Source: a virus | Taxonomy: Duplodnaviria > Caudoviricetes | Virus record (IMG/VR): IMGVR_UViG_3300028571_002339 | Location: 1-57,821 of that record | Strand: one strand, 5' to 3' | DNA length: 57,821 nucleotides | In this document: positions 1 through 46,800 of the stretch, in pieces | Numbering within the stretch: position 1 is the stretch's first letter | Layout: the number at the start of each line of letters is the position of its first letter | Made by a program: the position numbers and the translations under genes | The notes under the pieces: generated by a model | Seen by the model: the letters and a program-made list of their open reading frames with translations, nothing else | What the model was told of the DNA's origin: nothing | Database searches by the model: none

Positions 1-24
1 TAATTATTTAGTATAATAAAAAAG

Positions 25-96
25 ACCAGCTCTGGATTTCGGCAATAAAAAAACTGCCTTGCGACAGTTTTTGAAAAATCAGAGAAGTAGGGATTC
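25..96. repeat. att-like direct repeat, left copy (exact core 44..96)
   Basis: Matches 57742..57814; identity stops inside the tRNA T-loop (GGATTC|TCTT vs GGATTC|GAACCC). Confidence 0.9.
49..72 (-). terminator. intrinsic terminator hairpin (copy of the tRNA terminator)
   Basis: AAAAACTG-ccttgcga-CAGTTTTT inverted repeat with A/T tails. Confidence 0.6.
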
Positions 97-147
97 TCTT
101 TAGGCGTTTGCGAAGTATGAGCATTACTATCACTTTCCAGTTAAATA

Positions 148-500
148 CAGAAATATGTAATTGAAAGCCAATCGCTGAAGTTTAGGCTGTGTCTTGATAT
201 TGAGGCGGTTCCGCTGTGTCCAGAAATATGGAATTGAAATTAACGGAATTGACGATTTCTTATCCGAAAAGTTGACGATTTTTCCTACGAAATCCTTGCC
301 AAGTGCTACATTCAGGCGACACGTCTATAACATCGGCATAGGAATTTTTGGTAATTTTTCAATTACATTTTATGTAATTGAAGCAAGTCTTCCCCCTTGG
401 TGGGAAATGTTTTTAAAACAACACCTTTGGCGTTTAAATATATAAATGCCGAAAGTAAAATTTTTTCTCCAAAAATGTAATTGAAACTTGAAATGTAATC
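148..500. repeat. cluster of ATGTAATTGAA motifs (direct and inverted)
   Basis: CAGAAATATG(T/G)AATTGAAA at 148-166 and 221-239; palindrome TTCAATTACAT-TTT-ATGTAATTGAA 358-382; ATGTAATTGAAA 475-486. Confidence 0.75.
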
Positions 501-634
501 CAAAATTATTTTTTGTTATTAATCTATAAAATTAAAAACATGTTTTTCAAATATACATACCTGGGTAATAGATTTTTATAAATTATTATGTATGATTAAA
601 ATAATGGATATAGAATAAATTGGGTAGAGGAAGT

Positions 635-1162
635 ATGTTATTTACAAAAAGTCGCTTAAAAACAGAACCGTCTGATTATATTATTAAAGCCTCAATCAAT
701 GAAAGTAAATATAAAACAAGTTTTGATGTTTTTCTTTCACATAGTTTTGATGATAAACCTTATATTTATGAACTAAAAAATATTTTAGAAGGTCATGGCT
801 TATCCGTATATGTAGATTGGTTGGTAGATGGATACTTGGATAGGAATAATGTAACGACTAAAACTGCTGAAATTCTAAGAACCAGAATGAAGCAATCAAA
901 AAGTTTATTGTATGCAACCTCAATAAATAGCAGTTCCTCAAAATGGATGCCTTGGGAATTGGGGTTTTTTGACGGATATAAAGGTAAAGTCGCAATAATA
1001 CCTATTGTTGAAAATTCTTATTCTAAATATGAAGGTCAAGAATATTTAGGATTATACCCTTATATAGATGAAGCCAAAATTCAAAATAGTGATAATATGG
1101 CTCTTTGGATAAATAAAGCAGATAATTCGTCTTATAATATTAGGAGTTGGGTTAATGGTTAA
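635..1162 (+). CDS. TIR domain protein (Thoeris ThsB-like)
   Basis: FDVFLSHS and WMPWELG (catalytic Glu) TIR motifs; ATG at 635 follows AGAGG RBS (ORF track starts at TTG 620). Confidence 0.85.
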   Translation: MLFTKSRLKTEPSDYIIKASINESKYKTSFDVFLSHSFDDKPYIYELKNILEGHGLSVYVDWLVDGYLDRNNVTTKTAEILRTRMKQSKSLLYATSINSSSSKWMPWELGFFDGYKGKVAIIPIVENSYSKYEGQEYLGLYPYIDEAKIQNSDNMALWINKADNSSYNIRSWVNG

Positions 1163-2534
1163 TGAATATTCTAGTGAAAAAACTGTTTTTGTTGCAATGC
1201 CCTTCGGTTATAAAAAGCCATTAAAAGGAACTTACCAGATTAATTTCGACAATATTTATGAAAAATCTATAAAATCTGCCGTTATAGAAATGGGATTAAA
1301 TATTATAAGAGCGGATGAAGAAAATAACGGCGGCATTATTCATACATTAATGTATGAACGCTTAGTATGCTCCGATATAGTTATTGTTGATATTACTAAT
1401 CAAAACCCAAATGTGTATTATGAACTTGGATTTAGGCATTGTGCAAAACCATATCATACGATTATTATTTATGATAAAAAGCATCAAATACCATTTGATA
1501 TAGCCCTACTCCGTGCAATCCCGTATGAACTCAAAAGAGGTGAAATACCTTTAGAAAGTGCAAATAAGTTAAAAGAAGAAATTAAAAAACGGATTGAATT
1601 AGCTTTAAATTATGATGACACAAACGATAGTCCGGCTTTTGAATTAATTAGTGATTTCCCAACAACAGTATTATCAGATGGAAATATTAAAATATTTAAA
1701 AATACATATTCATTATGCGAAAAATTAAAAGATGAATTGCAGTCTGCCTGCAATACAGAAGAAATAGGACAAATTTTAACAGAAATAGAAAAAAGCAGTA
1801 TCCCTATATATTATATAGCCTACGAAATTATAAAAAGCTATAAGCGATTAAAGGAATGGACGGCACTTATTAATTTTCTAAATTGCCATAAAGATTCCGA
1901 TTTAAAAGATTTTGTACATGTAAAACAGCAATTAGCATTGGCTCTTAATAAAAGAGGTCAAAATACGGATAGAGAAAACGCTATAAGAATTTTAGAAAAT
2001 ATTTTAAAAGATATTGGTGAATCATCTGAAACTTATGGCTTACTCGGCAGTATAAATAAAGAATTAATGTTAAAATCAACAACCACAATGCAGGTAGGAG
2101 CCTTTTTAGATAAATCTATTTCTAATTATCGCAGCGGCTTTTTGTATGATACAACTAATTATTATACAGGTATAAATCTTGCAACTTTATTACTATATAA
2201 AAATGATATAAAATCTTCAATCGAATTACAAAAAATCATTCCTGTTATTGTATATAACATAGAATTACAAGATTTTAGCATCAGCGCTGATTATTGGCTA
2301 CTAGCTACTGTTTATGAAATATATGTACATTGTTTAAGGTTTGATGATGCTAAAAATATTTTAAAGCATATTTTGTCAATGCAAAAGAAACCAGATAACT
2401 GGGAAATAGAATCAACATTGAAAAATTTAAAGCTAATTAAAGAAATTTATGAACAAAAAGAATTACCAACTGACTGGTACGAGATTTACGAAGATGAACT
2501 AAACACAAAGGAGGTTAAAAATGTCTTGGAATAG
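1155..2534 (+). CDS. deoxyribohydrolase/NDT-like domain + TPR (DUF4071, MAP3K TRAF-binding-like) protein
   Basis: VFVAMPFG...RADE...DITNQNPNVYYELG; C-terminal QLALALNKR, SETYGLLG, YYTGINLATLL, DYWLLAT helical repeats. Confidence 0.8.
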   Translation: MVNEYSSEKTVFVAMPFGYKKPLKGTYQINFDNIYEKSIKSAVIEMGLNIIRADEENNGGIIHTLMYERLVCSDIVIVDITNQNPNVYYELGFRHCAKPYHTIIIYDKKHQIPFDIALLRAIPYELKRGEIPLESANKLKEEIKKRIELALNYDDTNDSPAFELISDFPTTVLSDGNIKIFKNTYSLCEKLKDELQSACNTEEIGQILTEIEKSSIPIYYIAYEIIKSYKRLKEWTALINFLNCHKDSDLKDFVHVKQQLALALNKRGQNTDRENAIRILENILKDIGESSETYGLLGSINKELMLKSTTTMQVGAFLDKSISNYRSGFLYDTTNYYTGINLATLLLYKNDIKSSIELQKIIPVIVYNIELQDFSISADYWLLATVYEIYVHCLRFDDAKNILKHILSMQKKPDNWEIESTLKNLKLIKEIYEQKELPTDWYEIYEDELNTKEVKNVLE

Positions 2535-2943
2535 AAGAGTTTTTATTTCGCACTGTTGGAGCTACGATACAGCTTACAACACAATAAAAGGTTGGCTAGA
2601 TGATGCTCCATACTATACATTTACAGATGGCAGTATTACAACGGATAAAGCTTTAACTGGACTAACTGATGAACAATTAGCACAGGCGATAAAAGAGAGA
2701 ATCCGTCAATGTAGTATTTTTGTTGTTCCTACAGGAATGTACTGCAATGGTAGTGATTGGATAACTTTTGAAGTTAATACCGCTGCTGCAATGGGTAAAC
2801 CTATTTTAGCTGTTAAACCTTGGGGACAAGAAAAAAATGCAAAAATAGTCACTGATAATGCTACATTAATTGTTGGATGGAATTCATCAAGTGTAATTGA
2901 CGGTATAAAAAAACTTACATCTACAAGTTATATTAACAAATAA
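2521..2943 (+). CDS. TIR-like protein (MTH538/DUF1863, ThsB-like)
   Basis: RVFISHCWSY, WITFEV, KPILAVKPWG, VGWNSSS motifs. Confidence 0.85.
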   Translation: MSWNRRVFISHCWSYDTAYNTIKGWLDDAPYYTFTDGSITTDKALTGLTDEQLAQAIKERIRQCSIFVVPTGMYCNGSDWITFEVNTAAAMGKPILAVKPWGQEKNAKIVTDNATLIVGWNSSSVIDGIKKLTSTSYINK

Positions 2944-3022
2944 AGAACTTCCAATCTACACATTCCAACACATTTCCCTCAAAACAGTTCCATTGTAGGA
3001 AGTTTGGAGTGATTAATGTAGT

Positions 3023-5110
3023 ATGGAAAATATTTTAAAAACCTTTAATACGACTGACACTTGGCTTGATGTAGAGACTGTCGCAGCTCTTAAAAAGATA
3101 TCAAATAGAGCCGTAAGATTATCACTCAAAAAGAAAAACCCTGACGGGGTAAACAAGTACAATTATCAGACAGAAACCGTCAGAGGCGGAAGTGCATATA
3201 AGATTCAGCTATCCAGCCTTGAGGAAGAATATCAAATTAAGTACATCAAAGAATACTACGACAATTTGACCCTAGTCGATAATAAAATCGAACTACATAA
3301 TTTTCAGCCCAAACCTGAGAAAATAATATCAGAAGTTCAACGCAAAAAAGCACTTGCAAAATATGACCTGATAAAATTTTGGGAAGAATACAGAAAAAAT
3401 AAAAAAGACAATAATATCCCCAATAAAAACTCAGATAGAATGTTTTTGGAAAGCTACAATACAGGACTTTTGTATCCTGAGATTTTTGCTGTAATAAATA
3501 CAATCGGAATCGGCTCTCTTTATTCCTGGAAGAATGTAATTGATAAGAACTCGGATTGGACAGCACTTGTCGGCAATTACAAATATTCTTCAAACAAAGT
3601 TTACCGAACAAAATTAAAGGAAGAAGAAATAACGGTCTTTCTAAAAATACTTTTATCCCCAAATAGATTTTCGATAGGCAAGGCAATCGGCTTAACAAGG
3701 CATATTTTGGAAGAAAAGGGATTTGAAAATATGCCAAAAGAAGTGACCTTCAGGCGATATGCAAAGTGGTATAAATCTGCAAATTATGACAAATGGGTGC
3801 TCGCAAGAGAAGGTGCTAAAGCACTTAAGGACAGAGTGGAACCGTATATTGTCAGAGATATAAGCGTGCTTGAGCCTGGGCAGGTTTTAATTGCAGACGG
3901 ACACACCCTTAACTTCCAAGTGATAAATCCTTTCACAGGAAAACCTTGCCGTGCAACACTACTTGGATTCCTTGATTGGAAATCAGGCGGACTTGTTGGA
4001 TACGATATTATGCTTGAAGAGTGTACCCAAAGTATTTCTTCAGCACTAAGGAATGCAATTTTGCACATGGACCATATCCCGAGTTTTGTTTATCAGGATA
4101 ATGGCAGAGCTTTTAAGAGTAAATTTTTTAACGGCGATACGAAATTCGAAGAATTAGGATTTACAGGAGTTTATGAAAAATTGGGAATAAAACCTGTTTA
4201 TGCAACTCCATACAATGCTCGGGCAAAAGTCATCGAGCGTTTCTTTTTGGAATTTCAAGAAAGCTTTGAAAAACTGATACCAAGCTATATAGGGACAAGT
4301 ATTGAGAATAAACCAGCGTATATGAATCGCAATGAGAAGCTCCATAAGGTGATACACCAAGAAAAGGCTAACTTTATTCCGACTATTGAACAAGCATTAT
4401 CATTAGTCAGAGAGTGGTTAAACTTTAGACACTCCCAGCCTTGTCCGAATGTCCCTGGCAAATCAATTCAGGAAGTTTTGGACTTAATTCCAAAACAAAA
4501 TATTTGCGAAGAAACATTGGACGATTTAATGATGGCACAAGAGGTAAAACACATCGGCAGAAACGGTATAAGGTTCTTAAAATCCAATTATTTTAATGAC
4601 GAACTTTATGGTATCAGAGAAAAAGCGGTTATAAAATACAACCTGAGCGATTTAAGTTACATCAAAGTGTATTCAGTCAAAGGCGAATTTTTGTGCAGGG
4701 CTGACAGAGTTACTGCAACGCATCCACTTGCTTATCAAATGGGCGACATCAAGGATATTGAAGATTACAAACACAAAATCAAAAAGCAAAATCAACTTAG
4801 AAACAAAACAATGAAAGCCGTTAAGGAACATTTTGCACTTGAAGATATCGAACTTATTAAAACTAACCTTATTGAAAATACTTTGATTGATGACAATTCG
4901 GTAATAGAAGCCGACATTATCAAACCTGCAAAACCTGAAAAAGAAAAACTAACAGAAACTTATGTAAACAATAGACCTCGACCACTTTTTAAAGATAATT
5001 ACGAACGCTATGAGTGGCATATAAAAAATGGATGTGTCGGAGTTGACGATAGAAGGTGGTTTGAAGAGTACATAAAATCAGAGGAGTATAGAAATATATA
5101 TGCAGAATAA
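3023..5110 (+). CDS. Mu-type DDE transposase (second copy, A1)
   Basis: IADGH, QDNGRAF, KVIERFF DDE triad; Mu transposase C-terminal region (GRNGIRF). Confidence 0.9.
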   Translation: MENILKTFNTTDTWLDVETVAALKKISNRAVRLSLKKKNPDGVNKYNYQTETVRGGSAYKIQLSSLEEEYQIKYIKEYYDNLTLVDNKIELHNFQPKPEKIISEVQRKKALAKYDLIKFWEEYRKNKKDNNIPNKNSDRMFLESYNTGLLYPEIFAVINTIGIGSLYSWKNVIDKNSDWTALVGNYKYSSNKVYRTKLKEEEITVFLKILLSPNRFSIGKAIGLTRHILEEKGFENMPKEVTFRRYAKWYKSANYDKWVLAREGAKALKDRVEPYIVRDISVLEPGQVLIADGHTLNFQVINPFTGKPCRATLLGFLDWKSGGLVGYDIMLEECTQSISSALRNAILHMDHIPSFVYQDNGRAFKSKFFNGDTKFEELGFTGVYEKLGIKPVYATPYNARAKVIERFFLEFQESFEKLIPSYIGTSIENKPAYMNRNEKLHKVIHQEKANFIPTIEQALSLVREWLNFRHSQPCPNVPGKSIQEVLDLIPKQNICEETLDDLMMAQEVKHIGRNGIRFLKSNYFNDELYGIREKAVIKYNLSDLSYIKVYSVKGEFLCRADRVTATHPLAYQMGDIKDIEDYKHKIKKQNQLRNKTMKAVKEHFALEDIELIKTNLIENTLIDDNSVIEADIIKPAKPEKEKLTETYVNNRPRPLFKDNYERYEWHIKNGCVGVDDRRWFEEYIKSEEYRNIYAE

Positions 5111-5789
5111 ATTTATTAAAACACAGAATGTAAAACGCTTTATATCATTGATGGATAACCTACAAAAAGCACCGCCGAATGTTCCAAAGATAGCCCTCGT
5201 GCATGGCGAATTCGGGCTTGGAAAGTCGCAAGCGATAATGTGGTGGGTTACAAATAATGATGCCATTTATGTTCGCTGTAACCATAAAATGAGTAGCCGT
5301 TGGCTGTTATCCGAAATAGTAAAAGAGCTTGACGAAGAACCTTGCAGGCAATCTTCGCAACTGTTTAGACAAATCGAGGATAAATTAAAAGCAGAATCCA
5401 AGGTGATAGTGGTTGATGAGATTGATTATCTTTTTACAAATACGCATACAATCGAAATATTGAGGGACATACACGATAAATTGGGAGTGCCGATTTTGCT
5501 TGTTGGAATGGGTTTGTCAAACAGAAAACTTCTAAAATATGGGCATATTAACGACAGAATTTTTGCGAAATTGAAATTTGAAAAAATCGGCAAGGAAGAT
5601 TTTAAAGAAATTATCTCAACGCTATCAGAAGTTGAGTTTACCGCCGAGGCAATAAAATATATCGAGTCTCGAAATCTTCAGTTCCGCCAACTTGTGAAAC
5701 TTATTAATAGAGCAGAAAATCTTGCAGATACTAATAAACTTAATCAGATTGACGAAGTAATAGTGAGGGAGCTATTTGATGAAAAATAA
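5100..5789 (+). CDS. AAA+ ATPase, MuB/TnsC-like (B1)
   Basis: Walker A GEFGLGKS, Walker B IVVDE; coupled to the transposase. Confidence 0.9.
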   Translation: MQNKFIKTQNVKRFISLMDNLQKAPPNVPKIALVHGEFGLGKSQAIMWWVTNNDAIYVRCNHKMSSRWLLSEIVKELDEEPCRQSSQLFRQIEDKLKAESKVIVVDEIDYLFTNTHTIEILRDIHDKLGVPILLVGMGLSNRKLLKYGHINDRIFAKLKFEKIGKEDFKEIISTLSEVEFTAEAIKYIESRNLQFRQLVKLINRAENLADTNKLNQIDEVIVRELFDEK

Positions 5790-6456
5790 GGTTTTGAAAC
5801 TGGCAAAAAGACTTGGTAAATTTTCTGTCGAAGATATTTCACAGATTATTACTACCGATAAAAACCAATTGGAAGAAATTTTACAAGAATTATTATCTGA
5901 AAAATCTATACTTAAAAGAGCAGATAGCACTTATTTTCATCAAGAAAAGAGTAAAAAGAAAACATCAAAACTTCCGCTATTTTTTGAATTCAGGACAAAA
6001 GAAGAACTTGATTTAATAATTAAATGTTTTTGTGCCGAAGTTTCTGTTTCGAAAAGTGTAATGATATGCAGTATTTCAGAAAATGTAATCTCTACATTTA
6101 CCCAGTATTTTAGAAAAGTCATTTATGAAAACCAATTACTAGAATTAAATAATTACTTTGAAAATAATCCACAGCAATTCCGACTGAGAACTTTTTATGA
6201 AAAGCCAACTTATTTTTATTTTTATGAAAATAGATTGTTTGTAAGTGACAATGTCCTATTATCGCCTAACGGCTGCATTAATTTTAAACAAGACGAAATC
6301 AAAAAGTTTAAAATCCTCTATTGCAGAATTAAAAGAATATTGAGCCACAATACTAGGCGGATATTATTACATCATCATATTTCAGAGAGCCTGTGGCGAG
6401 ATTCTAAAAGCTTTGAAGAATTAGTCAATGATTTGCATCAATTGCTAACGGCTTGA
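5779..6456 (+). CDS. winged-helix protein with degenerate IS1595/ISXO2-like C-terminus; third gene of transposase module
   Basis: Overlaps the ATPase stop; N-terminal wHTH-like pattern; IIKCFCAEV and HHHISESLWR resemble IS1595 segments, but no clear DDE triad. Confidence 0.5.
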   Translation: MKNKVLKLAKRLGKFSVEDISQIITTDKNQLEEILQELLSEKSILKRADSTYFHQEKSKKKTSKLPLFFEFRTKEELDLIIKCFCAEVSVSKSVMICSISENVISTFTQYFRKVIYENQLLELNNYFENNPQQFRLRTFYEKPTYFYFYENRLFVSDNVLLSPNGCINFKQDEIKKFKILYCRIKRILSHNTRRILLHHHISESLWRDSKSFEELVNDLHQLLTA

Positions 6457-7322
6457 AAATCAAACTTGAGATTATCCTCTACAGGTTGTAATTCTTCATC
6501 ATCAAAAACATCTTCTTGTATTATTTTACGGCGTTCTGGAGGTTTATTGTACAACTTATAAATATCTAATGGGATACGCATTTTTTTATTGTACATAAGC
6601 AACATAGCTTCTGCATATCCAAGAGAACCTGCCCTTCGCTCATTTGCGGTTCTGGATAATTCTTTTATGGAATATCTGCACATTTTTTCTTTAAAAATAT
6701 CATCATTAAGTTCGTTCGCATAGGCTGCAATTAATTTAGATACTCCTTTTAATATATTTGCCGACAATGAATTGATATCGCCCTCCCAAGTTCCGATACA
6801 AAGCCTCAGAGTTCTATCGAGATTATGAAAACCGAATTTTTTGTGTATATATTCTAAAGTCGATATGGCACAAATTCCGCCAATAACCTTAGTTGAGGTG
6901 AGAAATAAGTCATATGATTCTACCAAATCCTTTATTATAAGCTGTTCATCATTTCCGGCTTCAACATTTGCCATAAAAATTTCGTACGAAGTTAAAGATT
7001 TTACGTACTTTTGTTGGTTGGCAAAAATATCCGCTTCTTCTTGATAATCTAATTCATCATATATCATGCACCATACAGGAGTTTCACGTGATTCTGAAAC
7101 AGTCGCTACAATTTCAATCGTATGCTGCCCATTAAAAACATAGTTTATACCATCTCTTCTACTAACTTTCACTGGATTTATCTGACACAAATCAAAATTT
7201 GCGACTGCACGTTTAACATGTGCTTCAGACAAATTACGCTGATATTCTTGATTTGATACCAGGTTTTTTATCGGGATTTGCTCAAAATGTACATTTGGAA
7301 TAAATTGACTATACTCTTCCAT
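6438..7322 (-). CDS. ParB/DGQHR-like protein (DUF6551-like)
   Basis: NQEYQR and VFNGQHT motifs. Confidence 0.7.
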   Translation of the reverse strand: MEEYSQFIPNVHFEQIPIKNLVSNQEYQRNLSEAHVKRAVANFDLCQINPVKVSRRDGINYVFNGQHTIEIVATVSESRETPVWCMIYDELDYQEEADIFANQQKYVKSLTSYEIFMANVEAGNDEQLIIKDLVESYDLFLTSTKVIGGICAISTLEYIHKKFGFHNLDRTLRLCIGTWEGDINSLSANILKGVSKLIAAYANELNDDIFKEKMCRYSIKELSRTANERRAGSLGYAEAMLLMYNKKMRIPLDIYKLYNKPPERRKIIQEDVFDDEELQPVEDNLKFDFQAVSN

Positions 7323-8248
7323 TATTTCTCCTCTACTGCTAATAATATTGCATTTATTGTGTATTCTAAATTTTTTAACTCATTTTGTAGTTTTATTTTT
7401 GCCTTACTTGAAGCTTTACAAAAATTTGCATTTGATAAAGTTCTATTTATGGAACTAATCCAAGAGGGAAGTGTTAAAGTCAGGCTTGATATTTCTGCAT
7501 CAGGGTCATAAGCTGGCATATCCTTGACTGATAATGTATCACTCCGCTTCGGGATAACCTTGCGCACACTTGAATATGGTATAAAAGTTTCATCATTATT
7601 ATTCAATTTATTTTTGACCGTATTAATTGCTTTGAATGGTTGTTTTGATAATTTTTTAATATTATATTGAGAAATTTTTACGTTCCCATTTAAAACGTCC
7701 GAAATGAATTCGGGTTCTTTATTTGATAGCGTATCTATTGATCTTGCATAAGCAGCATATTTTCTAACAGTCTTTGGAGAAAGATGGTATTCCTCACCCA
7801 ATTGTTCTGCTGTATTTTGCATGGATTTTTTTATTGTTGAGTTATCTTTATGGGCGATCTCCATTTCATTATCTTTATATTGATTTTTACCCAAAGGATT
7901 CCTTTTCCCAAGTATTTTTTCCATTTCGTATCTTTTTCCTATTAAATATCTTTTAGTCTCTTCCGAAATATTCCTGCGACCCAATTGGTTTGCACAAATC
8001 CAAGTTATAATTTCTTCTCTGGAATCAAAATCGACATATTGTACAAAAAATGGGATTTGTAATCTTGTACAAATTTCATAGCGATTATGTCCATCAATAA
8101 TTATGTTTTCCCAAACGCATAATGGTTCTCTGCAACCATCTCTGGAAATATTTTCCTCCAGCTGAATACGTTCATTTTTGCTTAAGGGTGGAATTAATTG
8201 CTTAAATCTTTCATCTATTTGTAACTTATAAATTTGTTTTTCTGCCAT
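7322..8248 (-). CDS. ParB N-terminal domain protein with HTH
   Basis: LIPPLS..E...LEENI..DGCREPL, IIDGHNRY, NQLGRRN; start at ATG 8248 after GGAG (track: 8266). Confidence 0.75.
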   Translation of the reverse strand: MAEKQIYKLQIDERFKQLIPPLSKNERIQLEENISRDGCREPLCVWENIIIDGHNRYEICTRLQIPFFVQYVDFDSREEIITWICANQLGRRNISEETKRYLIGKRYEMEKILGKRNPLGKNQYKDNEMEIAHKDNSTIKKSMQNTAEQLGEEYHLSPKTVRKYAAYARSIDTLSNKEPEFISDVLNGNVKISQYNIKKLSKQPFKAINTVKNKLNNNDETFIPYSSVRKVIPKRSDTLSVKDMPAYDPDAEISSLTLTLPSWISSINRTLSNANFCKASSKAKIKLQNELKNLEYTINAILLAVEEK

Positions 8249-8621: not shown

Positions 8622-9273
8622 ATTTTACTTCCTCCGATTGAATAAAATTATCTTGTTGTTCTTGTCGATTATTTTCTTTATCTTTAATGCCAAAAACTGT
8701 ATAACCGTTAAATATATTTACTTGCAGTTGCTTACCATGTTCTTCAACAGGCAATCCAAACTGATTTTGCCATTGGGCAGGAAATACAGGAGTTCGAGAA
8801 GTTTTTGGTTTTTCACCTTCTTGAATTGTTCTTTGATAAATTTCGGTTGCCGTTAGGTCAAAAATGAATAAATACTCATTGCCGCTTTTGATTAATTTCC
8901 CAAGTAATTTATATCTGAACTCCGGATTCCAATCCATCAAGTCAACAATTTTGGCAAAGAATACTCGGCAGCTAATTTGCTTTGGCTTACGTTTGATCGT
9001 GCTCCAAGGGAAAGAATCTTTTTCATCTTCGCGACAGGGGCGTACAGCTAGTTTTCTTTCTTCAGAATTAACAAGAATTTGGACATAATCTACATGCGGT
9101 AGTCGCTTTAGACATGCAGTATTTAATGAAACTTTACTTCTATTAAAAGTTATAGAAGGTTCATGTAAATGGGCAAAATACTCGCCTCTTACAACTTGAT
9201 AGCCATCATAATTAAAATTAGAATCCTCAATAGCATCAAGGTTTTGTTCGTTGGTATTCCCATCTTCAGTCAT
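8614..9273 (-). CDS. hypothetical protein, paralogous to the recombinase C-terminal domain
   Basis: YQVVRGEYF, YVQILVN, LAVRPC, WNPEFRYK, FPAQWQNQFG; start at ATG 9273 after GGAG (track: 9297). Confidence 0.75.
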   Translation of the reverse strand: MTEDGNTNEQNLDAIEDSNFNYDGYQVVRGEYFAHLHEPSITFNRSKVSLNTACLKRLPHVDYVQILVNSEERKLAVRPCREDEKDSFPWSTIKRKPKQISCRVFFAKIVDLMDWNPEFRYKLLGKLIKSGNEYLFIFDLTATEIYQRTIQEGEKPKTSRTPVFPAQWQNQFGLPVEEHGKQLQVNIFNGYTVFGIKDKENNRQEQQDNFIQSEEVKYE

Positions 9274-11167
9274 TTGTAATCTCCTGCTCCATATCACTTA
9301 TGATATTTTTTATATTATTTCGAACTTCATCGGAACTGGTTACATTTAGTTCTGACTGCAAATAAGGTTTACCTTCTTCATTTGTTTTCCATTCATCATT
9401 TTTGTTTAAAAGTGCAAGTTCACTAGCCTGCATTTGTCTGTAGTAATTATTCCCAAAAGTGTTTGCCCAATTACTAGGAAAGGCCATAATATCTTTATTG
9501 GGACCGTTGGTAAAAGGCTCTAGACCTTTTGGGAAAGAATTATCTGGACATTCTTCACCTTCATTACTTTTTATTTCTTTTTGCGAAATAAAAATTTCAG
9601 TTTCATTCATATTGAAAATTATTAAAATTTCATCATTTTTTTGCCTGCGGATTCCGCGTACACGATATTTATACCCTGGATTCCAACCAAATAATTCATA
9701 TAAAGTTTTGATATAAGCGGCACCGCTTACCCCTCGAGAATAATATAAACCATTCTCCACCCTTGCCCATTGCACTGCGTTCCTTAGTTTATCTGAGCAA
9801 GGTCTTACTGCAAATAAATTTTGACTTGGGTTCACTAGCATTTCAACGTAAAGAACTTTATCAAACTTTCGAACGCATTCTGTGCTAAATTGTATGTTAT
9901 CAGGTGAAAATGTTACACATATTTTTTGGATTGTGTCGAAGAATTGTGAACGAGCCACTTCAAATTTGCGCAGGTCAAAATCTCCTGAATTAGCTTCTAT
10001 GTCTAAGTTTTCTGATAAATCCTCCCTTGCTTCAAAAACACTTTCAGATGCATCCAAATAGTCTTTTGCCTTAAATGCTGCCCATCTTGGATTTATTGAA
10101 ACAAAACCTTTTAGTGCTCCGTCATTCACAACTTTTAATTCGGGTAGGAAACCTTTATGTCCATATTTTGCATTACTTATTAATCTTTGTACGGCAATAA
10201 AATCGTCCCTAATTATAATTGCCTCGTGGTTATTTCTTTTTCTGTATTGATTTCTATCTTGCCTATTTCTTCTTGACTTATGGTCAAGATAATTTGGAGT
10301 CCAAGTTTTTCTTGCAAGTACATCCCCACAGTGACGTTCATTCTGAAGGACTTGTAATATTGTATTTGGAGACCAAGTCGTGTTACCTTTTTTGGTTGTA
10401 CATCTTAGATCAGTAAGGGTGTCTGCTATTTGTTGACAAGTATTTCCATGAAGATACATAAAGAAAACAAGGCGAACTATTTTTGCTTCTTCTTCATTAA
10501 TAACAAGTTTTCCGTCCTCATCTATATCATAACCCAGTAACGGTGGTGTTAAAAAAATACCTCGCCCAAAACGCATTTCAATAGAAGAATTCATAATATC
10601 ACTTTTAATATGTGATTCTTCTTGAGCCAATGTAGCCATAAAAGCTAAAATCATTTCACTATTATTATCTAGCGTATAGATATTTTCTGTTTCAAAAAAA
10701 ATACCAACTGGAGGCTGTAATTGCTTCAACTCTCTTGAATGACCGATGCAATCAACAACATTACGGGCAAAGCGACCTACGCTTTTTGTAACTATCAAGT
10801 CAATTTTTCCAGCATTACAGTCTTCTATCATTCTGACGAACGAATCTCTATGCCTAAGTGATGTTCCAGATATACCCTCATCAGCGTATATTTCAATAAG
10901 TTTCCAACCCTTATGCCTGTTAATAACATCCATATAGTGATTTTTTTGCAGCTCATAGGATGATGTTTGCCTTATATCATCAGTTGAAACACGAGCATAA
11001 ACAGCTACACGTTTTTCTTTTGTGTCTTCATGCAGATTAACTTGTGGAATCATAGGAATTACATCTAATTCGTCAAGACTAACGCCTTTGTACCTTTTTC
11101 GTATTTTTTCTTTTTTAGAGTCTGAATAATTCATTTGTAATTTCCCTTGATACCTGTACTTATGCAT
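9266..11167 (-). CDS. large serine recombinase with atypical C-terminal domain
   Basis: YARVST catalytic Ser, DEGISGT, TKSVGRFARN, recombinase domain PPLLGY; no CxxC zinc ribbon; alternative start 11134. Confidence 0.9.
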   Translation of the reverse strand: MHKYRYQGKLQMNYSDSKKEKIRKRYKGVSLDELDVIPMIPQVNLHEDTKEKRVAVYARVSTDDIRQTSSYELQKNHYMDVINRHKGWKLIEIYADEGISGTSLRHRDSFVRMIEDCNAGKIDLIVTKSVGRFARNVVDCIGHSRELKQLQPPVGIFFETENIYTLDNNSEMILAFMATLAQEESHIKSDIMNSSIEMRFGRGIFLTPPLLGYDIDEDGKLVINEEEAKIVRLVFFMYLHGNTCQQIADTLTDLRCTTKKGNTTWSPNTILQVLQNERHCGDVLARKTWTPNYLDHKSRRNRQDRNQYRKRNNHEAIIIRDDFIAVQRLISNAKYGHKGFLPELKVVNDGALKGFVSINPRWAAFKAKDYLDASESVFEAREDLSENLDIEANSGDFDLRKFEVARSQFFDTIQKICVTFSPDNIQFSTECVRKFDKVLYVEMLVNPSQNLFAVRPCSDKLRNAVQWARVENGLYYSRGVSGAAYIKTLYELFGWNPGYKYRVRGIRRQKNDEILIIFNMNETEIFISQKEIKSNEGEECPDNSFPKGLEPFTNGPNKDIMAFPSNWANTFGNNYYRQMQASELALLNKNDEWKTNEEGKPYLQSELNVTSSDEVRNNIKNIISDMEQEITND

Positions 11168-22650: not shown

Positions 22651-23066
22651 TTCTTTTTCATTCCTCCCTGCTTTTGTTTTTTCTCAGGGATTTTGCCTGT
22701 GTATTCCCGAAGCTTCAAATCGACCTGCACCGAAATCAAATCGCCTTCTTTACTTGTCTGTTCTGTTGTAGAGATAATTTCAGACAAAACAAAAACACCA
22801 ACATACTCGCCGTTTCCTTTTATGAATTTCAACAGTTCAGCTTTATTTGCAACGGTTTTCAATTTTTTAATTTCATCTTCAGGGACACAAAAAGAGTTAT
22901 GAAAATTGAGCTTGATATTTTGTTCTTGCAAATTCATTCCCATAAACTGCAAGACAGGCTTGTTATTAATCCGCTCATGTTCAGCGTAATTATATGAAAC
23001 GGTTTCTTCGATGCCGTTAAAGTATGTTATTAATTCAAATTGAATATCGCCAAGTTGTGCAAACAT
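22647..23066 (-). CDS. phage tail protein GpU-like
   Basis: MFAQLGDIQF, YAEH..I..KP.LQ..G. Confidence 0.85.
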   Translation of the reverse strand: MFAQLGDIQFELITYFNGIEETVSYNYAEHERINNKPVLQFMGMNLQEQNIKLNFHNSFCVPEDEIKKLKTVANKAELLKFIKGNGEYVGVFVLSEIISTTEQTSKEGDLISVQVDLKLREYTGKIPEKKQKQGGMKKK

Positions 23067-25507
23067 CAGTAAGCAAGCCTCATTTTTCTTTCATTTTCTT
23101 TTCTTACCATCGTGAGAATTTCTTCTTTATGTTTTTTGAGCAGTGCAAGAAAATCATCTTTTGCACCCTGTTTTGCACCTGACATTGTAATAATAGGGTT
23201 GTAGTGAATGACTGTTGAGCCACCGCCGGAGTTTACTCCTCTTGATTGGGCTTTTAAGGGGAGTGATTTGAAGCTCAACGCCTTGTTCATCGCAGCAACA
23301 ATTGGTAACGGTTTTATTGCAGATGCAATAGTTTCTGAGATTTTGACCTTGTGCAAATCTTTCAACGGACCTGTTTTAGCAGGAGAATGTGGTAAGTGGT
23401 CCCTGATGATTTGTGCGTGTTTATTTATTGCAGCTTGAGTTTTGCCTGTCTTGCTTAAAAGTCCGAATGTCAGCATATCGCCAATTTTTGCACCAAACTC
23501 GAACGCTTTTTGAACAAGGTTTGCAAATTTAAGAATAATATTTGCAATCGCTTTGCCGAATTTCACACCCATTTTTTCTGCGGCTCCACCGACATCATCA
23601 ACAGGTGTAAACAACTTTTTAAGCCAGTCAAACACTGCTTTTATAGGTTTTGTTATTGGTTCAAGGGCTTGTGCTAATTTGTTAAAAACAGGCATTAAAG
23701 GAGCTAAACCTTCTTTTAAACCTTGAAAAACACCTTTGAAAAATCCTGTAATAGGCTTCCAATATTTGTAAATCACAAAGGCAACTCCTGCAATTGCAAG
23801 TGCAATCCAGCCCAAAGGAGAAGTCAAAAGGGTTAGAGAAAAGGCACGGAATGATACTATTGCGGTTCTAATTATTGATGGGATTGATAAAAATCCTGTT
23901 TTGAATGATTTTAAACCGTTCATAAAATTCGCAGGAATCGCTTTAACAGAATTTATCGTCCAATCTTTCAAAGCTATTGTTGATTTCAAAATATTTGAAG
24001 GAAGATTTTTAAAAGAATTTCTCAAGTCGTTATCAATTCTTCTGACATCTGCTCCAAAACCCAAAAGAACGTGTTTTGGCAAATCCAAGCCTAATTTATT
24101 GCCGGCTTTAAAAATGTTAAAAGCATTATTTAAGCTGTGAGAAGAGGAGTTAAGTCCCATAAATTCTAAAAGTGCTACGGAGTTTTTTACTAAAACAGGA
24201 GTCAGCGCTCGAGCTTTTTCTAAAAAAGTGCCGTAAAAACCAATGAGTTTTCCGGTTAACATTGTACTGACCCCAAGTAAAGTAAGTGCAAGACCTGCCC
24301 CGATTGTACCAATTACCGCAGTAAACAATCCTTTTTGCATAACAGGGTTTGAATTTATTTTGTTTAATAAATCGTTCAAGGCTTTTAAAGGTGCGTGTAA
24401 ATGAGGAAAAACTAGCTCTTTCATATTAATCCGAAGCTGTTTCCACTGCTCATTTGTCGTTGTCATCATATTGGTAAAATCGCTGTCGATAATGCCTGAA
24501 GCACCAAGAGCAGATGATTTAATCCTTTTGTATTCATCCAAATTCTGAAGCATTGGTTTTATAAAAGACAAAACCTGTTTATCCTGAAAGACTTCAGAGA
24601 CTTTAAAAATATCGCCTTTGCTTGCTTTTTTCATCACTTCAAGGACTTCTAAAATCGGGTCTTTACCTTGCTTGGCGGCATCTACCAAAACATTTTTCAA
24701 ATTGATGCCGAAAGTATCTTTGAAATTTTTAACAGCAAGCGGAGATGTTACTTTTTGAATAAAGTTTTCCAAATTGTTTGCAGCTTCAGATGCATCACCT
24801 GCACCTTTCATTGCAATTTGAAGAGCCGCACCAAGTGATGCAACCGCAGGAACACCTTTCATTCCAAGCATACTGGCACCTGCCGTTAAACTAGGAAACG
24901 CTGATGCCATATCTTTTAATTCAAAACGTCCTTCTTTACCTGACTGAGCAAGAATATCCATGGATTTCGAAAGGTCATTAATCGGGACTTTTAAGTTATC
25001 GGACACAGAAAAAGCAGTTTTAGAAATATCAATAATCGCAGCTTGCTCTGCTGTAGCAGTTTTGCCGATTACATTCATATAATCAAGTGCTTTTGTTGGA
25101 TCAACACCTGAAGCTACAAGAACGTTCAAACCCTCAATAATCTCAGGGCGATATTGGTTTGTGTATTTTGAAATTTGCCCTAGTTTTTCGTCCATATTAG
25201 CAATTTGCTTTGCAGTCAATTCGCCAACATTTCCAAGTTCTCTGAGTCGGTGCTCCATTTCAAAAGCCTCTTGAATAGCATCTGTCATACCTAATTGATG
25301 AGCGATTCCAACACCTGCAGCAGTGAGTCCTGCACCTGCGGTTGCAATCTTTTTACCCATTTCATCAAACATTCTTGAGGTTTCTTTTATTTCATTTTGG
25401 AGTTTTTGAAATTCTGTTTCGGATTTTTTTACAGCATCTTTGATTACCCTCGACATTTTATCGATGGCGACAAGCGTTAATGAAATTTTCATCATATTGT
25501 CTATCAT
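23066..25507 (-). CDS. tail tape measure protein (TP901-type core)
   Basis: GKEGRFELKDMA, GDASEAANN; long helical protein at the canonical position. Confidence 0.9.
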   Translation of the reverse strand: MIDNMMKISLTLVAIDKMSRVIKDAVKKSETEFQKLQNEIKETSRMFDEMGKKIATAGAGLTAAGVGIAHQLGMTDAIQEAFEMEHRLRELGNVGELTAKQIANMDEKLGQISKYTNQYRPEIIEGLNVLVASGVDPTKALDYMNVIGKTATAEQAAIIDISKTAFSVSDNLKVPINDLSKSMDILAQSGKEGRFELKDMASAFPSLTAGASMLGMKGVPAVASLGAALQIAMKGAGDASEAANNLENFIQKVTSPLAVKNFKDTFGINLKNVLVDAAKQGKDPILEVLEVMKKASKGDIFKVSEVFQDKQVLSFIKPMLQNLDEYKRIKSSALGASGIIDSDFTNMMTTTNEQWKQLRINMKELVFPHLHAPLKALNDLLNKINSNPVMQKGLFTAVIGTIGAGLALTLLGVSTMLTGKLIGFYGTFLEKARALTPVLVKNSVALLEFMGLNSSSHSLNNAFNIFKAGNKLGLDLPKHVLLGFGADVRRIDNDLRNSFKNLPSNILKSTIALKDWTINSVKAIPANFMNGLKSFKTGFLSIPSIIRTAIVSFRAFSLTLLTSPLGWIALAIAGVAFVIYKYWKPITGFFKGVFQGLKEGLAPLMPVFNKLAQALEPITKPIKAVFDWLKKLFTPVDDVGGAAEKMGVKFGKAIANIILKFANLVQKAFEFGAKIGDMLTFGLLSKTGKTQAAINKHAQIIRDHLPHSPAKTGPLKDLHKVKISETIASAIKPLPIVAAMNKALSFKSLPLKAQSRGVNSGGGSTVIHYNPIITMSGAKQGAKDDFLALLKKHKEEILTMVRKENERKMRLAY

Positions 25508-27151: not shown

Positions 27152-27334
27152 TTATTTTCCTTTTTGGTACAATCCGCACTCACCTATTGCAATGTCTGAG
27201 TAGTGGAGTATTACTATTTCTTGGCTGATGGCTTGGATTAGTGGGCATTTCTCTACGTTTTTGCATTTGTGGCAGAGGTCATAATCTTCGCAAAATATGC
27301 TGAGTCGCCCTTGTTTATTTATTTCTGCTCGCAT
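27152..27334 (-). CDS. small Cys-rich phage protein
   Basis: 60 aa with CEDYDLCHKC..VEKCP...EC, tightly packed between sheath and tube. Confidence 0.6.
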   Translation of the reverse strand: MRAEINKQGRLSIFCEDYDLCHKCKNVEKCPLIQAISQEIVILHYSDIAIGECGLYQKGK

Positions 27335-28563
27335 TACGTTCCAAGCGATTTTAAAAGTTCAATATCGATGAAGCTTTCAAAAGTAATTCGCTCCGCAGGA
27401 GTCGGAGGCATAAACTCAACATCAAAGAGCAAATGTCCGTTTGCGATTTCTGTCACTGGGTTTTTATCAGGATTGTAGTAGCATTTGCCATCAATTAATG
27501 CACCACGCCCGATTAAGGTTCTAATAAAAGCATTCACTGATTCTGAAATTGAATCGATTAATCCGTTATCAATAGGGAAATCGATAAATTGCAACATTGA
27601 GTATTCAACACTTTCATGGAGAATATCTGCTGTTCGTCTGACATTGATAAAGTTTGTAGGATGAGTCGATGCAGGGAATGCAGCCGAACGGTTGCCCCAA
27701 GTTCTGAATCCTGAGCCATACGAATTAAAAACAGTAACAATGCCTGCTTCGTTTAAGGTGTTAACCTCGCTTGTCGGGTCGTTTATCATTGAAGTTAGCT
27801 GTTTTTCAACTCCGACAATTCCGTTGATTTCAGTATTTGAAGGCGACCAATGATAGCCTTTGTTGACATCCTTTGCTGCTATAACACCTGCAAGTCTTTG
27901 AGAATAAGGCTGTAAAACATTTGTATCCAATTCTGAATCGTAGACTTTCAAGTGTGGATAGCAAAGAATGACTCTATCAGAGGAAGTGTTGAAGTTGATT
28001 GTACCTTCCGGTCCTCTTCCGGTAATAGCTTCTTGAACGGTTGTGCCGATTGGAGCATCAACCAAGCCGATTGCTCTGATTTTGTCGCAAATAGCTTTCA
28101 TTTGAGATACCACTGCTGTTTCTTCACAGAAAACAGGAGCGATAATTGTTTTTGGAAAATACCCAAAAAGCGAGTAGCAATCCTCAAAGGCTTTCATACC
28201 TTTTCTTTTGCCTGTAAGAGTATCGACTCCTCCGTTAATGTCACCGATAGTCACATCAGAAACGCTTTGATGTTTCGCAGGATCAAAGACGTTTATAACA
28301 ATTACAACACCTGCACCCTGGTCAAAAATTGATTGCAGAGCTTGAGGAATTGTAAAACCTGAAGTCTGTTCGCCAAAATATTTAACCGCATCAATTTCGT
28401 TCAAAATTAAAGTCGGTTCGTTGATAGTTCTATATTCTGCTGCCACCGATGAAATCGGAGCAGTTCCGACAAGTCCGACAACCGCAGTTTTAACTGTTTT
28501 TATCGTTCTTGCACCTTTTTGTATTTCTATGGTTTCAACACCGTGTAAAAAACTAGCCGGCAT
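27334..28563 (-). CDS. tail sheath protein
   Basis: FLHGVETIE, GLVGTAP, WSPSN, GFRTWGNRS, PPTPAERI. Confidence 0.95.
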   Translation of the reverse strand: MPASFLHGVETIEIQKGARTIKTVKTAVVGLVGTAPISSVAAEYRTINEPTLILNEIDAVKYFGEQTSGFTIPQALQSIFDQGAGVVIVINVFDPAKHQSVSDVTIGDINGGVDTLTGKRKGMKAFEDCYSLFGYFPKTIIAPVFCEETAVVSQMKAICDKIRAIGLVDAPIGTTVQEAITGRGPEGTINFNTSSDRVILCYPHLKVYDSELDTNVLQPYSQRLAGVIAAKDVNKGYHWSPSNTEINGIVGVEKQLTSMINDPTSEVNTLNEAGIVTVFNSYGSGFRTWGNRSAAFPASTHPTNFINVRRTADILHESVEYSMLQFIDFPIDNGLIDSISESVNAFIRTLIGRGALIDGKCYYNPDKNPVTEIANGHLLFDVEFMPPTPAERITFESFIDIELLKSLGT

Positions 28564-29752: not shown

Positions 29753-30093
29753 TATTTATCACCTCCGTCAGTAGTTGAAGCATCTACGTTTGCCGTATCA
29801 GTAGATACAGTTTCGTCAGTTGTTTCGGTTGTAGTTTCGTCTTTAACTTCATCTGCCGTTGCTGTAGTTTCAGCATCAGATTTAGCCTTGGCTGTTGTTT
29901 TAGTTTTTGCAGCAGTAGAAGTTTTTGTAGTTGTTTTGGTTGTTGAAGTGACTGTATTTTCTTCAATTGGAATCAAAATGTCTGCAAGTTTTTCTCCTTG
30001 CTTTTCATCAAGTTCAATGACATCGCCTATTTTATAGGTCGTTCCGCTATGTAGCAGATTGGTGTTTTTTACCGTATATTTTTTATTAGCCAT
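29752..30093 (-). CDS. phage protein with Thr/Lys-rich low-complexity tail (Mu gp35 position)
   Basis: LLHSG..Y..GDVIEL N-domain; follows the capsid gene. Confidence 0.65.
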   Translation of the reverse strand: MANKKYTVKNTNLLHSGTTYKIGDVIELDEKQGEKLADILIPIEENTVTSTTKTTTKTSTAAKTKTTAKAKSDAETTATADEVKDETTTETTDETVSTDTANVDASTTDGGDK

Positions 30094-31030
30094 TAGTTTC
30101 TCCCTGTGTTAAATCGATTACGTTTGAAATCAAATACCCTGCTTCAGCACCGACAAGAAAAGGAGTATAAATGTCTGTAGCTCTGATATATTTGACTTTG
30201 TTGCCTTCTTTTTTGTATTCATCGATTTGAAGTGCATCTTTTTTACGAACTGTATAAGCAAAAGCAGGGTCGTATTCAGTTCTCGAATCAAGTTTTGGGA
30301 CATATGCCAAGACAATGTTATTGCCCCAAACTCTTACAAATTCGTTCTTTTCATTGGCAAAAATCGATTTGCCGATAAAAATATTTTCAACTTCAAAAAA
30401 TTCTTTAAAATGGTCCAATGTAAGAACTTTATTTTTGTCAGTGGAAAGCATCAGTTTTAAACCTTCATGGTTTTTTAAAGCTCTCCAAACATCTTGCCCC
30501 ATAACTAAAGTATTTGGGTCTTGTCCAATGTTTTTGCAAACTTTATCTTTTGCATTGTCAATCGTTATAATTGGATTTGAAGAGCCATTATTAAATTGAC
30601 TGGTTCCAGATAATGCAACTTTATTAGTATCAGGATAGCTGTTAGGATTTTGGACAAGGTCTGCACACTGTTTTTCGTGCTTTAGCTTTAAGCCTTGCGT
30701 TACAACATTTGTAGCGTGAACTTGTAGCTTGACCTTTTTAGCAGCTTCTTCTTCCTCACGATAATCAATTGGGTATGCTAAATCGTGTTCGGACAAGGTC
30801 GCAGATTTTTTTGTAAAACCTTTTGGGCTGATTACGTTTGAATTGGCCCTAATTGCGCGTTCTGTATCGTACATTTGGAAAGCTTCTTTGTTAAATTCAA
30901 AGATATCAATCTTTTCAAGTTCAGATTCTATTGTCGGGAACAGACTTTCTGCAATGAAAGCATTATTACTGTAACCTCTTGCTACCTCTGATAGGTATGC
31001 GTTAATTCGTAGCTCTTCTAAGCGTCCCAT
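30086..31030 (-). CDS. major capsid protein
   Basis: LSEVARGY.N..FIAE.LFP, PNTLVMG..VW..LKNH, AGYLI. Confidence 0.85.
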   Translation of the reverse strand: MGRLEELRINAYLSEVARGYSNNAFIAESLFPTIESELEKIDIFEFNKEAFQMYDTERAIRANSNVISPKGFTKKSATLSEHDLAYPIDYREEEEAAKKVKLQVHATNVVTQGLKLKHEKQCADLVQNPNSYPDTNKVALSGTSQFNNGSSNPIITIDNAKDKVCKNIGQDPNTLVMGQDVWRALKNHEGLKLMLSTDKNKVLTLDHFKEFFEVENIFIGKSIFANEKNEFVRVWGNNIVLAYVPKLDSRTEYDPAFAYTVRKKDALQIDEYKKEGNKVKYIRATDIYTPFLVGAEAGYLISNVIDLTQGETNG

Positions 31031-32502: not shown

Positions 32503-32744
32503 ATATTGAAAGAATTCAGCTAAAAGGGCAACTTTCAGAAGCCAAGTCAAAATACAGGAATCTCGATGTGGAAGCAGCGGCACTTATTCTTTTAATCCGT
32601 TCTTTGTTGAATCCGTACGAGGATGACACAACAAAGCAAGAAACAGAAAAAGCCCTTGTTTCCTTAACTCGCTTAAATGAAATAGTCACAGAACTCAGAA
32701 GATTAAAAAAGAAAATTTCTAACTTGGAGGACTATTTTGACTAA
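32499..32744 (+). CDS. hypothetical coiled-coil phage protein
   Basis: Translationally coupled ORF. Confidence 0.65.
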   Translation: MNIERIQLKGQLSEAKSKYRNLDVEAAALILLIRSLLNPYEDDTTKQETEKALVSLTRLNEIVTELRRLKKKISNLEDYFD

Positions 32745-34492: not shown

Positions 34493-34607
34493 GCGACCGT
34501 TTTTGATTTTTACCACCCAATACACCTAATCCGCATTAAAAAACGATTTTAAAACACGTTAAAAGGGTTTTAAAAATGGTTTTGACTAACTTCATAAAGG
34601 ATTTTTT

Positions 34608-37888: not shown

Positions 37889-37928
37889 ATTAAAAGAGAT
37901 TTAAAACACATTTAAAAGGAGTTTAAAA

Positions 37929-42123: not shown

Positions 42124-42124
42124 T

Positions 42125-46791: not shown

Positions 46792-46800
46792 TTTACCCCC

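Follow-up and report, generated by a model that had tools for sequence, protein, structure and literature searches.

The window analyzed here is the whole of IMG/VR viral record IMGVR_UViG_3300028571_002339, which is 57,821 bases long, classed as linear, and 86% complete. Near its left end, three genes lie on the + strand: TIR-A, a thsB-like gene (635–1162, 175 amino acids (aa) from the ATG at 635; given as 620/635–1162 in the list of open reading frames (ORFs)), a thsI-like effector gene referred to as the core (1155–2534, 459 aa), and TIR-B, a second thsB-like gene (2521–2943, 140 aa). An original prediction from the sequence had described this stretch as three overlapping genes forming a candidate new Thoeris-like defense system. 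The overlaps were found in the ORF list, 8 nt between TIR-A and the core and 14 nt between the core and TIR-B. All three frames are intact, and a Shine-Dalgarno-like stretch precedes each ATG (GAGGAAG at 635, AGGAG at 1155, and AAGGAGG at 2521). The operon is real, and it probably functions in defense. What we establish is the arrangement of its genes, the folds of their domains, the conservation of active-site residues and of gene linkage, and the mobile surroundings. The trio most likely represents a type VIII Thoeris-like system with the order thsB–thsI–thsB'.

A glycosidase-TPR protein between two TIR proteins

The core protein consists of a MilB/NDT/TIR-like N-glycosidase fold at residues ~10–165 and an ASK1-type TPR-S solenoid at residues ~175–455. 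It matched Pfam PF13281 (MAP3K_TRAF_bd, formerly DUF4071) at 2.6e-33 over residues 88–435 and PF20308 (TPR-S) at 8.4e-20. Its family counted 969 proteins at E<=0.001 among 8000 candidates scored, and nearly all of the listed matches carry both Pfam families. AlphaFold2 modeled the whole protein as an alpha/beta domain with five strands and, after it, a solenoid made up entirely of helices (predicted local distance difference test (pLDDT) 84.5, predicted template-modeling score (pTM) 0.71). In a Foldseek search with this model, human ASK1 (MAP3K5) was the best match (8QGY, E 4.4e-10; 5ULM, E 2e-7, TM 0.49/0.59), and a core-family profile searched against PDB sequences recovered the central regulatory TPR of ASK1 at 4.5e-31. 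The ASK1/MAP3K-like TPR region that had been read from the sequence is therefore present. The TPR is homologous to that of ASK1, with an additional faint match before it (8QGY residues 56–100). Unlike ASK1, the core terminates behind its TPR (residue 459), and no kinase domain was found on it with Pfam. ASK1, in turn, has no N-P-N...E motif, and its aligned stretch reads RQPSLFYHLG. The ASK signalosome has been traced to bacterial conflict systems (Aravind and colleagues, PMC8195603).

The N domain was also modeled separately (residues 1–175; pLDDT 85.5, pTM 0.82). Its best PDB matches were structures of the cytidine monophosphate (CMP) N-glycosidase MilB, namely, 4OHR at 4.7e-5 and 4JEL, 4OHB, and 4JEM (to 1.5e-4). 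The next matches were the TIR domain of TIR-STING (7UN8, 9LMQ), the nucleoside 2'-deoxyribosyltransferase 8QC0, and DNPH1 (9IA6). The NDT/deoxyribohydrolase-like N domain of the original prediction is thus borne out by the MilB and NDT matches, and its motif NPNVYYELG occupies residues 84–92. The N-terminal 170 residues are the best-conserved part of the family. Residues M15, P16, F17, R52, D54, E56, G60, H63, D79, N84, N86, V87, Y89, E90, L91, G92, R94, H95, P113, F114, and D115 are invariant in 45/45 N domains (and in 20/20). Pfam and PADLOC detected no SIR2, SLOG, or Macro domain on the core, in agreement with the earlier statement that no ThsA-type effector is encoded here. We rejected type I and type II Thoeris because there is no SIR2-SLOG or Macro effector. 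The only PADLOC match of the core was the model 'Effector TIR' PDLC00733 (2.9e-9, residues 43–124). We read this match as the TIR/NDT-like fold common to the core N domain, and a CBASS-type TIR effector was rejected for the core on this ground.

Both flanking proteins belong to the ThsB-like TIR proteins, as had been proposed, and they differ from each other. TIR-A matched TIR_2 (1e-6) and ThsB_TIR (1e-4) in Pfam, and almost all of it aligned to the PADLOC ThsB model PDLC00422 (3.2e-61). It belongs to a large family (2611 proteins at E<=1e-10). A single solved structure matched TIR-A, PDB 8BTN ('TIR domain-containing protein', E 4.8e-46), with ~80 of 152 aligned positions identical by hand count, including the motif WMPWELG(F/Y)FDG; no paper mentioning 8BTN was found in the literature searched. 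TIR-B matched Pfam ThsB_TIR at 7.1e-13 and the PADLOC ThsB model PDLC00418 at 1.7e-15. It also weakly matched PDB 1EIW (MTH538, E 0.0021). In the alignment of TIR-B-type proteins, F8, S10, S78, W80, and E84 are invariant in 14/14.

Both proteins keep the Glu residue that had been noted. E108 of TIR-A lies within WMPWELG, aligned to the same motif of 8BTN, and E84 of TIR-B lies within S78-x-W80-xxx-E84; the surroundings of each are S-x-W-x(2,3)-E. Given what is generally known of TIR enzymes, we take E108 and E84 to be the catalytic Glu positions.

Likeness to type VIII Thoeris

In a recent preprint, seven new Thoeris types were validated, and type VIII was defined as ThsB plus ThsI (Yirmiya et al. 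2025, bioRxiv 10.64898/2025.12.03.692087). ThsI is described there as a CMP-hydrolase domain joined to a TPR, as predicted by Burroughs and Aravind, and encoded beside ThsB. The window holds each of these features. Its ThsB-type genes stand alone and form an operon together with that of the effector, the effector's N domain has a CMP hydrolase (MilB/NDT-like) fold by its model matches, and the effector carries the TPR that Burroughs and Aravind linked to TIR signaling. Because the MilB-like domain, this TPR, and adjacent ThsB genes are all present, the trio was filed as type VIII-like, a membership that we hold with considerable confidence. The Thoeris-like character of the original prediction thus stood, and its novelty did not, since the architecture had already been named type VIII Thoeris. 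The suggestion that the DUF4071 protein is the receptor or effector also fared well, with the core taking the effector/receptor place in a Thoeris-like TIR operon. A search with PADLOC-DB 2.0.0 (2023), one of the checks proposed earlier, matched models to both ThsB proteins and held no effector model for the core; a PADLOC check would therefore point falsely to novelty. A literature search found no paper on such a DUF4071 + TIR system under those names.

Burroughs and Aravind reportedly made a computational prediction only of DrHyd-TPR core systems (J Bacteriol 2020, known to us through citing papers), and the core partners are said to include TIR, SLOG/YspA, patatin, LSDAT, and others. The window shares their DrHyd + ASK-type TPR core and is one more TIR-linked instance, and our neighborhood survey reproduced the partner list. 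For the core family, the prediction dates from 2020, the test from 2023, and the name from 2025; the trio adds one member. Its importance is accordingly not that of a new defense system. What is modestly new is its place beside a Mu-type transposase on a viral record and the lack of any other full-length core among the phage and viral-contig matches; the pairing of two TIR genes with one core adds some modest interest.

The 2023 test concerned the Bacillus cereus pair BcTir/BcTpr, which was shown to defend (Liu et al. 2023, bioRxiv 10.1101/2023.05.26.542521). There, BcTpr residues 1–189 resemble MilB (4JEM) with an active site at N80, P81, N82, and E86, residues 190–415 form the TPR, and the substitutions N82A and E86A abolished defense. 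The spacing of this motif is kept in the window, with N84, P85, N86, and E90 of the core corresponding to N80, P81, N82, and E86 of BcTpr. Two Bacillaceae homologues (P0043 and P0079) carry N80, N82, and E86 at the very numbers of BcTpr, by hand count on the alignment. Both systems therefore pair a small TIR with a MilB-like glycosidase (N-P-N...E)-TPR protein of ~415–460 aa with equal motif spacing. The B. cereus operon has two genes, whereas the window adds a classical ThsB, TIR-A. Two dissimilar thsB genes around one effector, as in the window, have been reported for the type I Thoeris system of B. cereus MSX-D12, and multiple ThsB genes per locus are already known for Thoeris. TIR-A falls in the ThsB family of the PADLOC Thoeris models, as in type I; the effector of the window differs from that of type I in its fold. 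Compared with type VIII, the window likewise has a ThsB-type gene beside a MilB-like + TPR effector, and it differs in having two unlike TIR genes flanking the effector and in its carriage on a viral record next to a Mu-type transposase.

Linkage of the genes was examined in nine close relatives whose core is 45–51% identical to that of the window (L001, L002, L164–L169, and L171). A TIR-B orthologue (50–67% identity) directly follows the core in 8/9 of them, L168 being the exception, and 4/9 have another TIR gene behind TIR-B. This second TIR is TIR-A-like in L002, L167, and L169 (38–41% identity), and in L001, it is a canonical TIR protein of 480 aa. In L164, an HNH protein occupies the position. 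Within this set, a second TIR upstream of the core occurs only in the window. TIR-A of the window is closer to 8BTN than to the TIR-A-like genes of these relatives, which suggests sensor swapping.

A survey of plasmids returned 67 records with a core match, and six annotated loci were inspected. TIR genes lie beside the core in 5/6 of these loci, and two or more TIR genes are present in 4/6. The gene orders are TIR, recombinase, TIR, core in a Lactiplantibacillus plasmid; core, TIR in Pseudomonas pA7J1; TIR on the opposite strand, kinase, core, DUF4231, TIR in a Rhizobium plasmid; core, TIR, TIR in a Klebsiella plasmid; and TIR, TIR, core, TIR in Acinetobacter pittii pC54_003. In an Aliarcobacter plasmid, the core has only 'hypothetical' neighbors. 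The TIR-core-TIR layout is thus already found among public annotated records, as in the A. pittii plasmid. SLATT and DUF4231 genes neighbor the core in several genomes and plasmids, a likeness to the rare operons with both ThsH (SLATT) and ThsI (Yirmiya et al. 2025). The plasmid matches of the core are mostly from Pseudomonadota, as is stated for type VIII (Yirmiya et al. 2025). The window differs in this respect, as its host is probably not a member of the Pseudomonadota. The nearest named relatives come from metagenome-assembled genomes (MAGs) of Gastranaerophilales and 'Cyanobacteria bacterium SIG28'. A Candidatus Gastranaerophilales MAG is the source given both for the core homologue closest to that of the window (P0002, 53%) and for a TIR-A relative (P0135, 62%), which hints at gut Melainabacteria as the host lineage. 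With the trio, the range of type VIII Thoeris would reach into a low-GC lineage (probably gut Melainabacteria) and include the setting of a transposable phage.

Several points weigh against the type VIII reading. The equation of the core with ThsI follows published descriptions in text rather than a sequence alignment. NCBIfam has no model matching the core and none matching TIR-B. TIR linkage is not universal in the core family. In a scan of species representatives (one genome per species), 600 pattern matches yielded at least 572 relatives, of which the top 80 were retained. A TIR-like ORF lay within ~4-kb flanks at 25/80 loci, a count obtained with a flank TIR profile iterated locally from the window TIRs, which may have drifted and for which some matches are long ORFs in GC-rich DNA. 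Immediate same-strand neighbors were picked by script, giving 68 upstream and 64 downstream, with none at 12 and 16 loci, respectively. TIR_2 was found in 5 and ThsB_TIR in 3 of the upstream neighbors, and ThsB_TIR in 3 and TIR_2 in 2 of the downstream ones. The other neighbors included TPR-S (9 upstream, 2 downstream), SLATT, Patatin, DUF4231, CHAT, trypsin-like, and LSDAT proteins. Given 25/80 loci and so few immediate neighbors, TIR linkage marks a subset of the core family. Liu et al. 2023 likewise counted 78 operons with a Tpr core, with the core alone in 29 and Tir-Tpr in 28. Promoter-like sites in 1–3200 numbered 21 against a shuffle mean of 18.5, which is not an enrichment, and the promoter/terminator scan of the same stretch gave counts no higher than shuffles. 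As promoter-like sites are no commoner than in shuffles, they lend no support to expression of the trio. Two further points against the reading are the weak match of TIR-B to PDB 8FZ9 ('TIR', E 0.0057 over 76 residues) and a conflict, which is not reconciled, between the two preprints over whether BcTpr or the TIR makes the signal.

Proposed signaling and competing readings

For sensing, signal identity, effector substrate, and protection, we infer from the published relatives. TIR-A and TIR-B would be dissimilar, alternative sensors of infection. Once triggered, they would use E108 and E84 to turn nicotinamide adenine dinucleotide (NAD+) into a cyclic ADP-ribose signal; both type VIII systems that were tested used canonical cyclic ADP-ribose (cADPR). 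The core would perceive this signal, probably through its TPR-S solenoid, and the signal would switch on the MilB-like N-glycosidase domain (N84, N86, E90). The active core would then destroy the nucleotide or NAD+ pool, and phage replication would stop by growth arrest or abortive infection. The two tested systems come from a Pseudomonas metagenome and Yersinia only (Yirmiya et al. 2025). Their TIRs, expressed alone, made canonical cADPR, and did so only after infection, while cADPR in the medium halted the growth of cells with a type VIII system (Yirmiya et al. 2025). Tad1 and MoTad2 failed to block type VIII defense (Yirmiya et al. 2025).

The B. cereus pair points to another division of labor. 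BcTpr, and not BcTir, was reported to be the NADase/cyclase that makes a cADPR isomer, with BcTir inactive, and the two proteins formed a complex by pull-down (Liu et al. 2023). By analogy, the core of the window would itself make a cADPR isomer and deplete NAD+, with TIR-B as a silent bound regulator and TIR-A as an added sensor. The BcTpr-type catalytic residues, required for defense in that pair, are invariant in the core family of the window, and the persistence of TIR-B beside the core in the close relatives is consistent with such a bound partner. A predicted complex of the core and TIR-B (score 0.01, mark 0.32) counts neither for nor against binding. TIR-B differs from the reportedly inactive BcTir in keeping its Glu, and the conservation of S78, W80, and E84 in 14/14 argues for an active TIR. 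The preprint puts the catalytic Glu of BcTir at position 37 (K37); among the papers searched, it alone mentions 8FZ9, and it reports a BcTir crystal structure (Liu et al. 2023). From this, 8FZ9 appears to be BcTir, and TIR-B would then be weakly similar to it. 8FZ9 keeps a Glu in the W..xE motif of the alignment, so BcTir may not be inactive. As type VIII TIRs made cADPR when expressed alone (Yirmiya et al. 2025), we consider it rather improbable that the window works in the manner of BcTir/BcTpr.

The two schemes might also be joined in one operon. TIR-B could be a BcTir-like regulatory or priming subunit and TIR-A the sensor that makes a diffusible signal, so that one effector integrates two TIR inputs, perhaps with the operon co-expressed with transposition genes. 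We regard this combination as speculative and unlikely. If true, it would join two conflicting published mechanisms, possibly through two different ADPR isomers. Co-expression is conceivable because the operon lies directly upstream of the transposition genes and no terminator-like site was detected in the 80-nt gap between TIR-B and the transposase; in that case, the operon might serve phage-phage competition rather than host protection. Since it naturally combines a single effector with a BcTir-like TIR on one side and a classical ThsB on the other, the trio could help decide between the published mechanisms.

A reversal of roles, in which a phage component is sensed by the TPR-S, the N domain produces the nucleotide signal, and the TIRs act as effectors that deplete NAD+, draws on the Pfam name of the repeat, 'Tetratricopeptide Repeats-Sensor'. 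DrHyd, TIR, and SLOG were placed in one clade of NAD+/nucleotide-processing domains, and DrHyd is listed among signal-generating enzymes and TIR among NADase effectors (Aravind and colleagues, PMC9503650). The occurrence of the core family without TIR, beside Patatin, SLATT, CHAT, and trypsin effectors, would fit such a role for the core. However, both TIRs of the window are short, stand-alone ThsB-type proteins, the class shown to act as sensors and signal makers in Thoeris, and the toxicity of external cADPR to type VIII cells places the ThsI side downstream of the signal (Yirmiya et al. 2025). We therefore consider the reversal very unlikely and keep to the type VIII reading, with the core as the effector.

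Mobile context and carriage on viral DNA

The operon stands at the edge of what appears to be a mobile element. An att-like direct repeat of 75 nt is found on the same strand at 22–96 and 57739–57814, with 95% identity between the copies. The operon begins 540 nt inside the left copy, which agrees with the earlier remark that it sits at an element boundary. The right copy continues into ...GGGATTCGAACCCT, where the record ends, and this sequence is read as the 3' part of a putative − strand tRNA gene cut by the record end; ARAGORN found no whole tRNA in the window. We interpret the repeats as the likely attL and attR, with the element inserted at a tRNA, which would be odd for a Mu-type phage. 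A cluster of short repeats lies upstream of the operon at 148–486, with CAGAAATATGKAATTGAAA present twice, AAAATGTAATTGAAA present together with its inverse, and TTGACGATTT... in tandem. These may be protein-binding sites, such as operator or transposase sites. With one mismatch allowed, ATGTAATTGAA has nine matches in the window, five of them within 155–485; the window-wide count is not above chance, as 8/100 shuffles reach 9 matches.

Downstream of the trio, a Mu-type DDE transposase A gene (3023–5110, + strand) begins 80 nt after TIR-B on the same strand. Its product matched Mu-transpos_C (2.2e-12), rve, and, over its full length, the transposase family phrog_310 (3.7e-89). It is followed by a MuB/TniB-type AAA+ ATPase B gene (5100–5789, + strand; AAA_22 1.5e-17, TniB 1.2e-8, and phrog_296, a DNA transposition protein, 3.4e-45). 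A second Mu-type module lies on the − strand near the other end, with A' at 52826–54778, B' at 51939–52817, and GemA at 51376–51810. The A/B and A'/B' proteins are only 27–30% identical and oppositely oriented; to judge by their sequences, the record holds two unrelated Mu-type transposition modules. No inverted partner or ends of a Mu-type element were detected by inverted-repeat searches of the whole window and of 1–7500 or by short-word blastn of 1–640 against the window.

The GC content of the trio is 29.7%, compared with 35.9% in A/B and 36.2% in the phage body (6438–39177). The nearest relative found for the A/B pair is L183, whose A is 66% identical; the trio is missing there, and the ~1.2 kb upstream of its A is without long + strand ORFs. 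In L168 (positions 1–4361), a metagenome contig, a related core lies between a homologue of the ABC transporter gene of the window (74% nt identity) and a broken MuA on the opposite strand, which is 70% identical in aa sequence to A of the window; the locus resembles a related pairing of cargo and transposase that has decayed. Also at L168, the core is without TIR-B, and a 31-nt repeat of the 3' end of the transporter gene follows that gene. Given the GC contrast, the absence of the trio from L183, and the L168 locus, the trio behaves as accessory cargo linked to this Mu-type transposase lineage. In the type VIII reading, it is probably low-GC cargo directly upstream of the transposase pair, near the att-like left end of a prophage-like element.

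The same surroundings could be taken to mean that the trio is inert cargo, a decaying remnant, or a gene set with some service to the mobile element other than defense. The adjacent A-B block may be a truncated second Mu-type module, a related core beside the broken MuA of L168 lacks TIR-B, and the promoter-like sites of the trio region are at shuffle level. Decay is hard to reconcile with the intact frames and good ribosome-binding sites of the trio or with the retention of every invariant family residue. Moreover, a 95% identical TIR-A (P0121) occurs on a separate 1.3-kb contig. We judge this possibility to be highly improbable and retain the view of the trio as a probable defense operon carried by a mobile element.

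Carriage on phage and viral DNA was surveyed with the core. Among 50,697 phage records, 37 matched the core, none covered 80% of it, and the 15 listed cover 25–27%. In IMG/VR, 76/167 pattern matches are relatives, all matching only within core residues 1–210, in a scan that is not exhaustive and from which the record of the window itself may be excluded. A viral-contig scan with the single core protein returned no relative, and the same scan with the transposase returned one, L183. Since the phage and IMG/VR matches are only partial, a full-length ThsI-like gene on viral DNA looks uncommon, and the core of the trio is the only one found among phage and viral-contig matches. Short homologues consisting of the N domain only (~110–210 matched residues) are common in phages, as in L088–L163 and in Streptococcus and Staphylococcus phage records; they may serve in anti-Thoeris action, nucleotide modification, or NADase activity.

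The remainder of the record carries features of a Mu-like phage, including the MuA-type transposase, MuB-type ATPase, Mu-type portal, F, and GemA. The − strand bears genes for a myovirus head and tail, with the major head protein at 30086–31030, the sheath at 27334–28563, and the tape measure at 23066–25507; a large serine recombinase is encoded at 9266–11167. The packaging block (32737–39177, + strand) comprises a TerS-like gene, TerL (33155–34492), the Mu portal (34608–36029), Mu F (37109–37888), and a virion morphogenesis protein (Mu G-like, 38698–39177). Within it, and on the same strand, are a C5 cytosine methylase (36022–37146) and an N6 adenine methylase (37929–38741). The block is divergent from the head and tail genes (11000–32005, − strand). 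The late region of phage Mu runs in a single direction, unlike this layout, which may reflect an inversion or the native arrangement.

Toward the right end, a Phage_integrase fragment of 180 aa is encoded at 50072–50614 and a CI/LexA-like repressor at 55227–55925. A second defense gene, AbiH (PF14253, 3e-53), lies at 56484–57575, just inside the right att-like repeat, and an ORF without a family match (55954–56469) is situated between the repressor and AbiH. Between the packaging block and the integrase fragment, a low-GC cluster (39192–49721, − strand, 28.9% GC) encodes an ABC transporter and sugar-modification genes. It may represent host DNA that separates two parts of a prophage, or else cargo for surface polysaccharides. 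Its products include FkbM methyltransferase, radical SAM, SIS-CBS isomerase-like, and NTP-transferase/APH-like proteins.

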